Assembly (NCBI GenBank): GCA_963717465.1
Contig: OY970340.1
Location: 608,001-672,000 of the forward strand
Source of the DNA: Candidatus Bathyarchaeota archaeon
GTDB taxonomy: Archaea > Thermoproteota > Bathyarchaeia > Bathyarchaeales > Bathycorpusculaceae
Direction of reading: 5' to 3'
Length of the DNA stretch: 64,000 nucleotides
The translations under genes were made by a program, and so were the position numbers. A model generated the notes under the pieces. The model was not told the origin of the DNA. It worked only from the letters and a program-made list of their open reading frames with translations, and searched no databases. Positions 7,576 to 14,150 of this stretch are shown piece after piece. The stretch's first letter is position 1; each line of letters starts with the position of its first letter.

Positions 7576-8091
7576 ATGGGCAAGCAGAATACGCGGGCTA
7601 AGAAAGATCAGGAAAATTTGAAGGTTTTGTTTGCTCTGATAGCGCTTGGCGGCAAAAGCGATAGAGAGATTGCCAAGATCTTGAAAATGAGCAACGCAAC
7701 GTTGTCTAGGCGAAAAAAGAAGCTGGAGCAAGAGGGTTACATAAGGGAACACACGGTAATACCTGACTTCCACAAAATGGGACTAGAATTCATCGTATTT
7801 TCATTCGCAAAAACCACGGATGTAATAACACCAGCACAAGTTGAAGAAGCACAAAGCTTGATTAATAAACAGCCCGAAGTGCTATGCCTTCTGGAAGAGC
7901 GCAGCTTAGCAGGAACAAACTGGGTTGCCGTGTCCGTACACAAGGATTACAACAGTTACTTGGAACTATCTGAAAAATTGCAAAGAGAATCAACGTTCAG
8001 ACCAAATGTGGAAACGCACAGCTTCATGTTTTACACCGGCAAAAAGTTTCCAAAAACATTCTCACTACGAAACCTGGAAACACTATTCTAA
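7576..8091 (+). CDS. Lrp/AsnC-type winged-helix regulator
   Basis: SDREIAKILKMSNATLSRRKKKLEQEGYI...PDFHKMG. Confidence 0.8.
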   Translation: MGKQNTRAKKDQENLKVLFALIALGGKSDREIAKILKMSNATLSRRKKKLEQEGYIREHTVIPDFHKMGLEFIVFSFAKTTDVITPAQVEEAQSLINKQPEVLCLLEERSLAGTNWVAVSVHKDYNSYLELSEKLQRESTFRPNVETHSFMFYTGKKFPKTFSLRNLETLF

Positions 8092-8144
8092 ATATAAAAA
8101 CTTTCTATCATTAGGTCCAATGTTAATCACTGCCCGACAGCTCA

Positions 8145-8234
8145 GACCAGCTTAACCCAGAACTAGGCGCATGGTGCTTCAAAGCAAACCTAGCAAAAGT
8201 GTACTCAGCCAACATTGGACCAATGGGACCATAA
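8145..8234 (+). repeat. Orphan copy of the 3-prime end of the molybdopterin oxidoreductase gene
   Basis: 8166-8222 is identical (57 nt) to 10881-10937; encodes DQLNPELGAWCFKANLAKVYSANIGPMGP*. Confidence 0.9.
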
Positions 8235-8632: not shown

Positions 8633-10949
8633 ATGATGAGTGTAAAGGTTGAAGATATAAAGAAATTCGATGGACAACACAGATGCGTCTGCGGTTTCTG
8701 CAGTACTGGATCTTGTCAATTGCTTGAAATAGTTCAAGACGGTAAGATCGTTAAGGTTGAGCCTGACTGGGAAAGCCCGTTTAATCCTGGGCCGTACTGT
8801 CAGAAGTGGAAGTACAGCTTAGAATACATTTACCACAAGGACAGGCCGAAGTACCCAATGAAGCGCATTGGCAAACGCGGCGAAGGCAAATGGCAAATAA
8901 TATCCTGGGCTCAGGCATATAGCGAAATATCAGCTAAAGTGAAGGAAATCGTCGCAAAATACGGCGGCCCATCCGTATGTGGCTTCTTTGGCACAGGCCG
9001 AGCCGCAAACTTAGGTCTAGGACTGGCTATTTTCCACGTATTAATAGGCAGCCCGAACTTTGGCTCTATAGCGGCTCAGACATGAGCCGGACCCACGAAC
9101 CAAGCCTTAGGATTAGGCTATGGCGTGGGAATAACATATGCAATGATTATCCCAGGTAAGACAAAAGGTATCTTTACAATTGGCACAAACCCAAGTGAGT
9201 CATGGACGTATTCATGGCCCGCATTCATTGCAGGATTAGAAGCTGGCACAAAAATGCTCAACGTCGACCCAAGATTCACGGAGACAACCAGACATTCTGA
9301 AATGTGGTTAGCGCTTAGACCCGGAACTGACACGGCCCTACTGATGGCTATAATTAATGTCATCATAGAAGAGGATCTATACGATCATGAATTTGTGGAA
9401 AAATGGACCTTTGGATTTGACAAGCTAAAAGAAAGGGCTAAACAGTATACACCTGAAAAAGCTGCGGAAATAACATGGGTTCCAGCTGAAAAAATCAGAG
9501 AAGCAGCCCGATGGATAGTGAAAAACCAGCCATGCACATTCCCATATGGCTATGCAATCGAATCAGCAGGCAGGAATTCTCTAAGCAATGTCCGCTCCAA
9601 ATATATGCTACCTGCATTAACTGGCAACATCGACATAGAAGGCGGCGAATACCTTCACGCAAAACCGAAATTCCACTCAGTTGTTGAATCAATGCACGAC
9701 ATAGTTGCGTTAGCAGATACGGATTCAATGATGAAACAGGTAGGAATAGACAACCATAGGGCGCTAAACTTCTATATTCATCCTCTGATGCAACAGGCAA
9801 GCCGATGGAAAAGGATACTGGGGTGACACTCACTCCTCAGGATCAAGAGGTCCAAACTTCTGCAACTTTATGGATACAATGGTATCGGAGAAACCCTATC
9901 CAATCAAGGCTATGCTATCCGGTGAAGTAGGTCCAATGAGGAATTATCCAAATATAAAGAAGGTTTATGAGGGTCTCAAGAAGCTTGAACTCTTCGTGTA
10001 CATTGAAGACGCTCAAATGACTCCTGAAGCCATGCTAGCAGACTACGTACTACCTGGCACCAGCCAATTCGAAAGACCTTCCGGCTATGCAACTCTTACT
10101 GGTCAAGGCGAGATTGAATTTGAGATTGCAGGAGACCGCGCAATGGCAAGCAAGATACCTGGTCTGTGGGATCTTGAAGACGATACGATCATATTCCGAA
10201 ACCTCGCTGTCGGAGTACTTGGTAAGGAATTAGTTGATAAAGTTTGGAAATGGAAGACTCCCGAGGAATTCCAAGACTGGTTCTACGAACCCGCAGGTTG
10301 GACTCGAAAACAAGTTATTGAGGAATGGAAAGGTGTACCACCATATGAGCCCAGATTCAAGAAATACGAGGAAGTTAACCCAGAGACTGGACTGGTTAGA
10401 GGCTTTGGTACTCCTGAGGGCAAAGTTGCGTTCTACTCGACTATTCTTGAGCAGATTGAATACGATCCGTTGCCGTATTATCAGGAATGCGCTTGGACAC
10501 CAATTAGTGCACCTGATATTGCAAAAGACTACCCATTCATTATGACTAGTGGAGCCAGATTCCAAGAAGCCCACCATGGCGAACTACGACACATCAGCTT
10601 AATGCGGCATTTGCGTCCATTCCCACGTGTAAAGATGCACCCACTGACAGCACGCAACATGGGTATCGGAGACGGCGAATGGGTCTACATTGAAACACCT
10701 GTTGGCAGATGCATGCAGCAAGTACGGTACGATTTCGGAGTTAACCCAAAGGTAGTTTCTCCTGAACATGGCTGGTGGAGACCAGAATTGCCAGCTGAAG
10801 AACCAACACTGTACGGATGGACAGACTGGAACATCGACGTAACAATTCCAAACGATGATGAACAACTCAGCCCAGAACTTGGCGCATGGTGCTTCAAAGC
10901 AAACCTAGCAAAAGTGTACTCAGCCAACATTGGACCAGTAGGTCCATAA
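8633..10949 (+). CDS. Mo/W-bisPGD oxidoreductase (DMSO reductase family, acetylene hydratase/catechol dehydroxylase-like) with in-frame TGA (candidate Sec) at 9083-9085 and one frameshift near 9810
   Basis: CGFCSTGSC...C 4Fe-4S motif, YPMKRIGKRGEGKW, VDPRFTET, WLALRPGTD, LTGNIDIEGG, ADYVLP, MHPLTA; no Tat signal. Confidence 0.9.
9092..9129 (+). promoter_or_regulatory. Putative bacterial-type SECIS hairpin directly downstream of UGA
   Basis: CCCACG/CGTGGG, CCA/TGG and AGCCT/AGGCT stems, bulged U, GGAU loop starting 25 nt after UGA. Confidence 0.7.
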
Positions 10950-10955
10950 ATTAAA

Positions 10956-10989
10956 TTTTTCCCTTTTTGTTTTTTCTTTTTTTTCTTTT
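10956..10989 (+). terminator. Oligo-T terminator
   Basis: Long T-rich tract right after the stop codon. Confidence 0.65.
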
Positions 10990-11276
10990 GACATAAGTTT
11001 AAGCAAAATTAAGATTACTTTGCCCAAACGCTTCTTGCCTCAGAACGTGTTTAGCCGTGATATATTTAGAGCCAGACGTAATTAGGCTTCTTTTAAGCTT
11101 CTTTAATATTATATCTTCATAATGAATATTCCAATTTGGAATTTATTTGAAGCTTTTGCAAAAATTTTTTATCAATTTTCCCATTAATTCAAACTATAGT
11201 TCTGAAATATCATGATTATAAAAACGATAAATCTTTATATAATATTTTTGACATATTAAGATAGCAGGGAAGGTAA

Positions 11277-12202: not shown

Positions 12203-14150
12203 TCACATTTTTTCAGGAGCTGTAACGCCAATTAATGTTAAGGCATTATGAAGTACAGTTTGGATTGCTTTTGTTAAGGCTATTCTTGCGTCGCTGAGTT
12301 CTTGTGAGTCTGCTTTAATCACGGGCAATGCATTGTAGAATGTGTTGAATTTGTCGGCTAAGGCATTTACGTAATCTGCGATCATGTTGGGTTTAAGGTA
12401 TTCTGTTGCTTCAATAAACATGTCTGGGAAACCTGCCAAAGCTAAGATTAATTCTCGTTCCAGTTTTTCTTTTAGTAATTCGAATCCTGGTTTTTCGGGT
12501 TCCCGTGCTGCTTTGCGTAAGATGCTGCATGCTCTAGCGTGGGTGTATTGGACGTAGGGTGCACTGTTGGTTTCAAAGTTTAGCACTCGATCCCAAGTGA
12601 AAACCACGGATTTTGAAGCGTCCACATCCACAAGCGAATATCGTACTGCTCCGATGCCTACGAAATCTGCAATTTTGCGCTTTTCTTTCTCGGTCAGCAT
12701 TGGTGATCGCTTGGAAACTTCTTCGTAAGCCCGTTGAACCGCTTCGTCTAAAACTTGGTCGAAAGTGATGTAGTGTCCTCTGCGGCTGCTCATTTTGTAT
12801 CCTGGAAGAGTAACCAGATTATAAGCGAAATGTACAAAATTATCTGCAAAGTCACCCTTACCAAGTGCGTAAAGAGCAAGTTTTAATTGCAATTGTGCAA
12901 GCGACTGCTCCATGCCGATAACGTTGACCACTTTCTCAGCCAAATTAAACTTCCATAGCGTATAAGCTACGTCACGTGTGGTGTACAGTGTGGTGCCGTC
13001 AGCACGAACAAGCGTTAATGGCGGAACCTCATAGTTTTCATGCAGGCCCAACTTGGGTTTTAATTTAAGTTGGTTAACAGCTTTTTCGCCGTCAAACTCT
13101 AAAACTCCACTTTCACTGAAAACGTAGCCTGAAGCTTTGAGTTTCCGTAAAACCTCAGATACTTGGCTGCTCCAGACGAAATCGCTCTCCCAATCCCAAG
13201 AATCATATGTAACTGACACACGTTTTTGCGTTTCTCTGAAACCGTCAAGACATAATTCGCTGACTTCCCGAATTAGCTGTTTTGCTTTAGGTTCACCTTC
13301 TTCGTATGCACGATTTAACCGGTTAATTTCCTCTTCAGGATTTTCATCTTTGCTAACCTGCATCAGAAGCGTTTCAAAAAGCACAGGGTATTTTTCTTTC
13401 AATTCGGAGGCGATGGAAAGCCACTCGTCAATTTCCTTATTTACTTTAGCTAAATCGTCCGCAGAATCTGGGTCAATTGCTTGGCGAACTCTTTTTAAAC
13501 GGTTGATTTCAACGATGCAACATGTAACCGTGTAGATTTTGCCAACGAACAAGTCGGCTTTTTCAGTGGGTTTTGGTCGACCAAGTTTGTCATAACCGTA
13601 GGCGACAACGCTGGATTGGCGACCAACATCATCAATGTAGTAGTGAGTTGAAACCGTGTGCCCCCTACATCTGAGAATGCGTGCTAAGGCATCTCCAAGC
13701 ATCGGGATTTCTTGCTTGTCCAATATGAATAGGATGCAGAGGATTAACACTTGTATGTTCGACGATGATTTTTTTAGGCTTATCGGTTTTAACGAAACCG
13801 TAGTTAGAATTCAACTGCTTAACTGAATTCAAAGTTAAAGCGGAGAATTTGGTAAAATCAACATAAAAGTTGATGTATCCTGCACCGGCAGTAGCAACTT
13901 TTTCAATTAATTTAAAGCTGGATTTATCGATGTTATCGACAAGTTGGTTAGCAATATCAAGAGGCTTTTGCCCCAGTTTCTTAGCTAACTCAAAGCAAAG
14001 TGAAGAAGCCAATTGTCCATACTCAATGTTTGGCGTCTTGCTCAAGTTTATGGTTGTATGCTTGGTTTCTGGAAAGGACTTTTCTAAAGCTTGAGCTAAT
14101 GCTGCTTCGCATTCTTGGCGGAACAGGGCAAAGGGGTTTTCAGTAGTCAT
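12203..14150 (-). CDS. argS: Arginine--tRNA ligase (frameshift near 13705)
   Basis: VEHTSVNPLHPIHIGQARN, KMSSRRG, PYVQYTHARACSILRKA. Confidence 0.95.

Follow-up and report, generated by a model that had tools for sequence, protein, structure and literature searches.

In the table of a 2026 review, selenocysteine (Sec) is named as a ligand of molybdenum or tungsten only for formate and formylmethanofuran dehydrogenases (PMC13188914). The Sec-containing formate dehydrogenases (FDHs; FdhF/FdhA) and FwdB hold the metal in a Mo/W-bis(pyranopterin guanine dinucleotide) (bisPGD) cofactor, and the Sec that ligates it is part of a U-H-x-P motif (PMC13188914, Table 1). A system for encoding Sec that has PSTK fused to archaeal SelB (aSelB) was published for diverse Bathyarchaeota (PMC8762117; also PMC9499178), hence the use of Sec by these archaea is not new. 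In this work we analyzed a gene at positions 8633–10949 (+) of a 64,000-nt stretch of the Candidatus Bathyarchaeota archaeon contig OY970340.1 (the window; coordinates are those of this stretch unless marked as genome positions). The gene is predicted to encode a Mo/W-bisPGD enzyme with Sec at the same column as in FDHs and FwdB, but within a U-A-G-P motif and in the branch of the dimethyl sulfoxide (DMSO) reductase superfamily that holds acetylene hydratase (AH). We estimate the probability of the whole explanation proposed below (a Sec enzyme, archaeal decoding, an in-gene hairpin signal and a frameshift that is an assembly error) at roughly 0.8.

An in-frame UGA at the metal-ligand column

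The first part of the gene appears as two open reading frames (ORFs), 8633–9085 and 9125–9826, in one shared frame. An earlier interpretation made from the letters and translations of the window (the sequence-only reading) had claimed that only TGA 9083–9085 parts them, and this was confirmed, since the stop-to-stop frame 9086–9826 is open. Its observation that the segment lacks another Cys also holds: from GSPN onward the read-through product (...LIGSPNFGSIAAQT-U-AGPTNQALGLGYG...) contains none.

When the N-terminal part was aligned to AH of Pelobacter (Syntrophotalea) acetylenicus (2e7z; E 2.6e-53), the TGA column coincided with the Cys of AMYMCIGNT (Cys141), and in the alignment to the F420-dependent FDH 9t1s it coincided with the 'x' (Sec) position. 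Cys occupies this column in all 108 full-length homologues (alignment of 109 of 122 proteins, 680–800 aa, comprising the intact paralogue P0002 and 108 homologues, after short fragments and two long fusions were dropped). At the DNA level, TGC or TGT was found there in 25/25 external homologous loci that could be aligned to the short query.

The genome under study is a single 3.05-Mb contig with an estimated completeness of 88%. A tblastn search revealed in it eleven copies covering the UGA region, with protein identities of 47–88%. It also detected p8, a copy of 35% identity that has Cys, and two remnants of C-terminal parts. All eleven copies, including the gene described here, contain a single in-frame TGA at codon 150–152 with conserved flanks. 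Eight of them (p1, p3, p6, p7, p9, p10, p11 and p12) are otherwise uninterrupted frames of about 770 codons, and the remaining three (this gene, p2 and p13) are frameshifted. The presence of the same single TGA in all eleven paralogues, eight of them otherwise uninterrupted, is more than chance would produce.

A similar picture was obtained outside this genome. Relatives with 63–79% identity in the protein collection were all called as pieces of about 560–607 aa that start after the TGA, and full-length relatives appeared only from 43% identity downward. A search with the 150-aa N-terminal piece revealed N-terminal pieces from other assemblies (NCBI, ENA, Logan), and nine out of nine stop a single residue short of the ligand column; a further, more distant match (the tenth) carries Cys. 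The sequence-only reading had proposed to look for Cys/TGA pairing at this column and for TGA in related genomes. The pairing was found, and the stops in other assemblies agree with a TGA there. The central claim of that reading, that Sec is encoded by this UGA and ligates Mo/W in an AH-type enzyme other than FDH, is strongly supported by the Cys/UGA pairing, the paralogues, the stops in foreign assemblies and the decoding machinery described below.

Gene callers in all sources split the gene at this point, and GTG at 9125 is a possible start of a second piece, as would be expected if the UGA were a true stop that leaves either a split gene (a 150-aa Fe-S piece and a 620-aa piece with a start of its own) or a pseudogene family. 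However, such a split would remove the sole metal-ligand residue, and the break lies exactly at the ligand column in 11/11 paralogues and 9/9 foreign fragments. Moreover, the 13 codons between TGA and GTG are conserved in frame, and eight copies have no other defect. We therefore regard a true stop as barely credible. A global reassignment of UGA was also rejected, as TGA is an ordinary stop in this genome and ends 202 of 861 long ORFs.

It is highly probable, judging from the alignments and the paralogues, that UGA 9083–9085 encodes Sec at the metal ligand; codon 151 would then be read as Sec in place of the metal-ligating Cys of all Cys-type relatives. The comparison with contigs of related strains covered 40 of 498 differences, none of them at 9083–9085, and informs on the frameshift described below but not on the TGA, which weighs against this conclusion. 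Scans of genome and metagenome contigs with the N-terminal part returned only homologues of 31–44% identity and no DNA of close relatives. In the search of sequencing runs, DNA runs contained at most 0.14 of the words, and no RNA run was listed.

In a sample of 401 genomes of the class, homologues were found in 102 other genomes; among the matches listed (37 further ones were not), identity did not exceed 44% and none had TGA at the ligand column. A Cys-type homologue from another family of the same order (G300:C50) was considered as a second Sec lineage and rejected: its ligand is Cys, and its TGA, at about position 1200–1260 of the locus, is situated at a Trp column (GENK*QRISW; relatives have Trp). 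Possible explanations of this TGA are erroneous sequencing, a nonsense mutation and reading of UGA as Trp.

Selenocysteine machinery of the genome

Two tRNAs with the anticodon TCA were detected by ARAGORN. Both pass the Rfam tRNA-Sec model (71.8 and 61.8 bits; gathering score 47), with 9 bp in the acceptor stem and 4 bp in the T stem. The gene for SepSecS (488.9 bits; cut-off 224.85) adjoins the first of them. SelD (240 bits; cut-off 125; genome C1:951702) has its own in-frame TGA at codon 14 (...VHG-U-SCKL...).

Two ORFs of 732 and 730 aa encode PSTK-aSelB fusions, with PSTK at the N-terminus followed by SelB. In the 732-aa protein PSTK covers residues 9–241 and selB residues 278–647 (270.9 bits; cut-off 242.25), and the 730-aa ORF has the same layout. 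The best solved relative of the SelB part of the 732-aa fusion is the archaeal SelB 4ac9 (E 2.4e-79, chain 19–478 of 482); the bacterial SelB 4zu9 matches only with its residues 9–300 of 582. Thus, the archaeal set was present when the genome was searched, as the sequence-only reading had suggested, for tRNA-Sec, SelD, SelB, and SelA versus PSTK/SepSecS: two tRNA-Sec, SepSecS, SelD and two PSTK-aSelB. The assignment of the DNA to a probable Bathyarchaeon made in the same reading agrees with the labels Candidatus Bathyarchaeia or Bathyarchaeota carried by the nearest homologues of the fusion that have names (about 70% identity). Its list of archaea with established Sec (Methanococcales, Methanopyrus and Asgard lineages) was incomplete, Bathyarchaeota Sec being in print (PMC8762117).

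The system described by Mukai et al. (PMC8762117) resembles the one found here in its fusion ORFs, in SepSecS and in a U.U mismatch of the tRNA-Sec acceptor stem. In the present genome this mismatch was observed in the 9-bp acceptor stem of both tRNA-Sec genes (L001 294–380 and L002 339–426). The mismatch reported for a wetland Bathyarchaeota lineage is U6:U67 (PMC8762117) and may correspond in position. Two differences should be mentioned. The text of that paper uses the word "selenoprotein" once and "SECIS" not at all, and describes neither selenoproteins nor a recoding signal, and the present genome adds a second, divergent pair of fusion and tRNA-Sec genes.

This second fusion (genome C1:2827366–2829723) is 54% identical to the first and is located directly beside the second tRNA-Sec. 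SepSecS scored above its cut-off in 10 of 120 genomes of the genus; the other nine Sec-positive congeners contain one PSTK-SelB each, and only this genome has the second fusion and tRNA-Sec pair. The second fusion co-occurs with the 11-copy enzyme family, which within the genus is likewise confined to this species. At genome C1:904785–904882 (-) ARAGORN also reported a tRNA-like gene of 98 nt, whose anticodon has four bases (ccgg) and to which no amino acid was assigned.

The UGA would be decoded by the archaeal pathway via tRNA-Sec, PSTK and SepSecS; SelD would provide selenophosphate, and the archaeal-type SelB fused to PSTK would be responsible for delivery. We infer insertion of Sec from this gene set together with the conserved codon. 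Cross-talk between Sec and SepRS/SepCysS has been discussed for these lineages (PMC8762117), and in principle the UGA might be decoded as Cys or another standard residue, either through a change of Sep-tRNA(Sec) into Cys-tRNA(Sec) or by near-cognate read-through. However, both SepSecS and the selenophosphate synthetase are present above their cut-offs, and the PSTK-SelB fusion was proposed precisely as a barrier to such cross-talk (PMC8762117). Furthermore, UGA is kept in eleven paralogues though TGC or TGT would serve, which is hard to explain without a benefit from Sec. Decoding as Cys or another standard residue appears very improbable, and decoding as Sec is the reading followed below.

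The hairpin downstream of the UGA

Archaeal Sec insertion sequence (SECIS) elements are placed in 3'-untranslated regions (3'-UTRs) by section 5 of the 2026 review (PMC13188914) and by a paper from 2024 (PMC11227280); Bathyarchaeia are not mentioned in the sections of these sources devoted to SECIS. The euryarchaeal SECIS (eaSECIS), a stem-loop of the 3'-UTR, is characterized by three S-S pairs and a GAA_A bulge; neither our pattern search nor Rfam revealed it here. Within 300 nt after the stop the pattern (a GAA_A-type stem-loop of our own design, of sensitivity not established) was found in none of the 11 paralogues. With Rfam, neither a SECIS nor any other family was matched near the gene at E <= 10, and no match reached the gathering score within ±4 kb of any of the 11 copies. 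Oligo-T tracts were located 15–45 nt after the stop in every paralogue.

Inside the coding sequence, a 38-nt hairpin (9092–9129) begins 6 nt after the TGA. Its minimum free energy (MFE) of -19.9 kcal/mol ranks first among the 758 segments of 44 nt in the gene (mean -6.5 ± 3.2 kcal/mol). The corresponding regions of all 11 copies fold as well, with energies of -16.0 to -22.2 kcal/mol and a start 6–7 nt after the UGA. In the alignment of the 11 sequences 89% of cells are paired, versus 23–47% when the partners are slid by 1–3 columns. Five pairs are changed on both sides, and the covariation score was reached by 0 of 500 shuffles. RNAalifold recovers the outer and apical helices. The clearest compensatory changes are those of p10 and p11, which are synonymous (TTA/TTA to CTA/TTG), and those of p9, which extend across different residues.

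Conservation at synonymous sites was measured as the fraction of identical codons at shared residues in seven intact close paralogues and the N-terminal part of this gene, excluding p2 and p13 as well as p9, which is divergent. The peak of identity is the 15-codon window from codon 153 (0.79 vs 0.57 ± 0.075; rank 1 of 752).

The same layout was revealed in an unrelated gene, the hdrA-mvhD fusion (genome C1:1519860–1522430 (-)), which contains two in-frame TGAs at canonical Cys/Sec positions. A hairpin starts at +6 after each UGA (-25.8 and -22.8 kcal/mol), and no other region among 843 windows of that gene is as stable as these two. Across the genus, 10/10 Sec-positive species share the hdrA TGA and have identical 16-nt arms on both sides of its hairpin, while the loop and flanks vary. 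Altogether, the base of the stem is at +6 in 12 of the 13 folded UGA sites and at +7 in paralogue p9.

Position and size bring this hairpin close to bacterial SECIS elements, which likewise lie inside the coding sequence just after the UGA. The constraints given for the latter are an apical loop of 3–9 nt, an upper stem of 4–16 bp, 16–37 nt from UGA to loop and an MFE of at most -7.5 kcal/mol (PMC13188914). The hairpin found here has a 7-nt loop, an 8-bp upper helix, a spacing of 22 nt and an energy of -19.9 kcal/mol, all within this consensus. The review adds a rule that G is found at the first or second position of the apical loop (PMC13188914).

Comparisons with other genes were less informative. 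Folding downstream of the Cys codon did not discriminate: 26 loci gave -13.9 ± 4.1 kcal/mol, with 7/26 at or below -16, in a set that includes p13 of this genome and bacterial loci of different base composition. For four archaeal loci of the same class the range was -6.5 to -10.7 kcal/mol. Searching the genome with a covariance model built from the hairpin recovered only the 11 training copies, which is uninformative on other genes.

Several observations weigh against a role of the hairpin as SECIS. The pairs of the lower stem show hardly any variation, and G-P-T and G-V-G, which this stem encodes, are conserved, so part of the conservation could be at the protein level. The paralogues are related rather than independent, which inflates the shuffle tests. 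Cross-species covariation is unavailable, because the family was not found at E <= 1e-20 in the genomes of 119 other species of the genus. The loop UAGGAUU fits the bacterial G rule only if U.U and A-U close a GGA triloop, and the hdrA loop AAGUAUA is outside this rule. Only a weak structure follows the UGA of SelD (60 nt, -9.2 kcal/mol), a codon that may have its signal elsewhere or a different mode of decoding. Finally, in contrast to the bacterial system, the SelB of this genome is of the archaeal type, fused to PSTK, and has no bacterial C-terminal SECIS-binding domains.

An alternative is that Sec is inserted at the UGA while the hairpin is a by-product of conserved codons or a pausing structure, the signal acting from the 5'- or 3'-UTR or in trans. 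The nearly invariant lower stem over conserved residues, the lack of a comparable hairpin in SelD, the UTR position of published archaeal SECIS elements (PMC13188914, section 5; PMC11227280) and the uncertain sensitivity of the 3'-UTR pattern search all agree with this alternative. It does not account for the peak of synonymous-site conservation or for the compensatory synonymous changes in the upper stem. The +6 layout at both UGAs of the unrelated hdrA-mvhD gene, with hdrA arms invariant across 10 species, and the T-tracts right after the stop codons also argue against it. We consider this alternative possible, though the less probable of the two.

An in-gene SECIS is suggested by the stability of the hairpin, its covariation, the synonymous peak, the layout of hdrA-mvhD and the failure to find a 3'-UTR SECIS, and with some preference we interpret hairpin 9092–9129 as such an element. 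The recoding signal would most likely be this hairpin, in the position known from bacteria, though SelB has no known hairpin-binding domain. In the literature searched on Sec in Bathyarchaeota/Bathyarchaeia, neither the selenoproteome of Bathyarchaeia nor an archaeal SECIS inside a gene was found to be described; an in-gene hairpin signal appears to be an arrangement described for bacteria and not for archaea.

The gene, its relatives and possible function

The Fe4S4, molybdopterin and dinucleotide-binding domains follow each other in the order characteristic of the MopB/DMSO reductase superfamily, and C20, C23, C27 and C56 align with the cluster cysteines of AH. In the N-terminal part Pfam detected PF04879 (residues 19–68, E 6.4e-8) and PF00384 (residues 71–293, E 8.6e-18), and in the C-terminal part PF00384 and PF01568 (E 9.8e-12; within 9789–10946). 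No signal peptide is visible before the cluster motif, and no gene for a partner subunit was found beside the enzyme gene. From the domains and their order, 8633–10949 (+) is predicted to be one gene for a cytoplasmic single-subunit Mo/W-bisPGD enzyme of about 771 aa (Table 1).

Table 1. Location of the gene parts and neighbouring features in the window.
Feature	Position	Strand	Basis
Winged-helix (HTH_24/MarR-like) regulator, 171 aa, directly upstream	7576..8091	+	Pfam HTH_24 E 1.3e-7
Remnant of another family copy: final 35 codons and stop	8127..8234	+	tblastn, 77% identity to C-terminal residues 352–386
Codons 1–150: [4Fe-4S] motif C20-x2-C23-x3-C27...C56, start of molybdopterin domain, no signal peptide	8633..9082	+	Pfam, AH alignment
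In-frame TGA, codon 151, proposed Sec as Mo/W protein ligand	9083..9085	+	aligns with AH Cys141 and FDH Sec
Frame after the proposed Sec (molybdopterin domain), until the frameshift	9086..9808	+	open frame, Pfam
Candidate in-gene SECIS, 38-nt hairpin, apical loop 9108–9114	9092..9129	+	folding, covariation, synonymous-site conservation
+1 frameshift site, one surplus base in the assembly	9797..9808	+	paralogue DNA alignment, related contigs
C-terminal part in +1 frame: end of molybdopterin domain and dinucleotide-binding domain; stop TAA 10947–10949	9801..10949	+	Pfam
T-rich tract right after the stop, terminator-like, little space for a 3'-UTR element	10950..10990	+	sequence
Control outside the gene: single-copy arginyl-tRNA synthetase, also frameshift-split	12206..14150	-	Pfam domains over two overlapping ORFs

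The reading frame of this copy is broken once more. Frame 1 terminates at TGA 9824–9826, and the C-terminal 386 codons follow in the next frame (stop-to-stop 9789–10949). Alignment of the paralogue DNA revealed one extra A at 9799/9800. At 9806 one letter is missing from four out of four contigs that three runs provided for related strains (96–98% identity over 196–632 bases). Removal of the surplus base at either place restores the frame. The sequence-only reading had described the other disruptions in the window as frameshifts and not nonsense codons; frameshifts do exist there, and the one within this very gene had gone unmentioned.

The arginyl-tRNA synthetase gene, about 3 kb from the enzyme gene and the only such locus in the genome, changes frame at ...HIGQARNP/MLGDALAR... 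(about 13668–13750). Genes for UvrB, a DegT-type aminotransferase and an Old Yellow Enzyme (OYE)-like protein in the paralogue neighbourhoods are also split by frameshifts. We read the frameshift near 9797–9808 as a probable assembly artefact, because the related contigs lack the base, the synthetase and other genes are split, and completeness is 88% for a single contig. The real gene would then be intact.

This copy could also be a genuine recent pseudogene of a Sec-encoding family, its protein truncated by the frameshift after about 397 residues. Points that weigh for such decay, and against an artefact, are the position of the surplus base outside any long homopolymer and the frameshifts in 3 of 11 copies (this gene, p2 and p13). 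Family copies do decay, as the two C-terminal remnants show (8127–8234 in the window and 1076144–1076551 in the genome). Nevertheless, all four related contigs lack the surplus base, and the rest of the gene is clean, with an open frame of 386 codons that is 88% identical to p10 over 386 residues. The same kind of break in the essential single-copy synthetase and in several other genes points to assembly errors, and we regard a pseudogene as unlikely. The remnant within the window, whose translation ends in ...ELGAWCFKANLAKVYSANIGPMGP*, is situated between the regulator gene and the enzyme gene; the second lies elsewhere in the genome.

To place the enzyme we used the intact paralogue P0002 (82–88% identical to this gene), which aligns with AH 2e7z end to end (residues 18–763 with AH 4–725; E 1.6e-104). 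Its next solved relative is a thiosulfate reductase, which matches in the N-terminal half only (E 3.1e-56), and the similarity to FDHs is likewise confined to this half. No NCBIfam equivalog was passed. An identity as FDH was rejected by the U-A-G-P motif and the low score with Fdh-alpha TIGR01591 (234 bits vs cut-off 666), and that as thiosulfate/polysulfide reductase PhsA/PsrA by NF012032 (253 bits vs cut-off 694).

AH resembles this enzyme in its size, N-terminal [4Fe-4S] motif and ligand column as well as in having neither a signal peptide nor a partner subunit gene. It differs by Cys instead of UGA (Sec) at the ligand and by Asp13, which is next to the second cluster cysteine and essential for catalysis. 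Both the gene described here and P0002 have Ser24 at the position of Asp13, which weighs against a transfer of the AH reaction and makes the chemistry of this enzyme uncertain. A further difference is the presence of eleven paralogues, each with its own regulator. Acetylene hydration is an unlikely function because of the Asp to Ser change, the different ligand and the eleven regulator-linked paralogues.

The bis(molybdopterin guanine dinucleotide) enzymes described as closest to AH are the catechol dehydroxylases (Dadh and Cldh of Eggerthella/Gordonibacter), which occur as many substrate-specific paralogues in aromatics-degrading anaerobes and 'even Archaea' (PMC7028382). The bacterial loci that we retrieved (33–43% identity) belong largely to Eggerthellaceae/Coriobacteriia, Clostridia, Peptococcaceae and Geobacter. 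The present family would share with the dehydroxylases the AH branch, paralogue expansion and overlapping bacterial taxa, as indicated by the taxa of these loci and by the published description (PMC7028382). The dehydroxylases differ in their Cys ligand, and Dadh consists of several subunits, whereas the enzyme described here has no partner genes.

The neighbourhoods of the paralogues are recurrent. Small HTH_24 winged-helix regulators are located beside most of them (ORFs next to p1, p3, p7, p11 and p12). A 660-aa OYE-like FMN/FAD oxidoreductase is next door at four loci, and corrinoid proteins with MttB-like or MtmB-like methyltransferases are found near five. These neighbours hint at the metabolism of methylated or aromatic compounds. 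By analogy, the enzymes might catalyze substrate-specific hydration or reductive dehydroxylation of plant-derived aromatic compounds, a tentative assignment that we ourselves consider doubtful; acetylene hydration and formate oxidation are not expected.

Peat and sediments harbour abundant Bathyarchaeia. Metabolic reconstructions of these archaea miss the enzymes described here, because every copy of the family is cut in two by automatic annotation. If the proposed reading is true, a Sec-ligated enzyme of the AH/catechol dehydroxylase branch, kept in 11 copies, would add other reactions to those known for selenium-metal chemistry. The conserved hairpins at +6 nt matter more, as they would contradict the textbook rule that archaeal SECIS elements are situated in untranslated regions.

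Taken together, the data lead us to a broader hypothesis, which we hold at slightly less than even odds. Sec-using Bathyarchaeia would mark their Sec codons by hairpins within the coding sequence at +6 nt, read by the PSTK-aSelB fusion or an unknown partner, rather than by a UTR element. In this species the system would serve the 11 copies of a family whose Sec-ligated W/Mo enzymes differ from both formate and formylmethanofuran dehydrogenases and probably act on plant-derived aromatics in peat, and the second pair of PSTK-SelB and tRNA-Sec may serve this family. If so, it would be a third arrangement of Sec recoding, combining archaeal machinery with the bacterial position of the signal, and the hairpins make it testable how an archaeal SelB with no known RNA-binding domain finds its codon.

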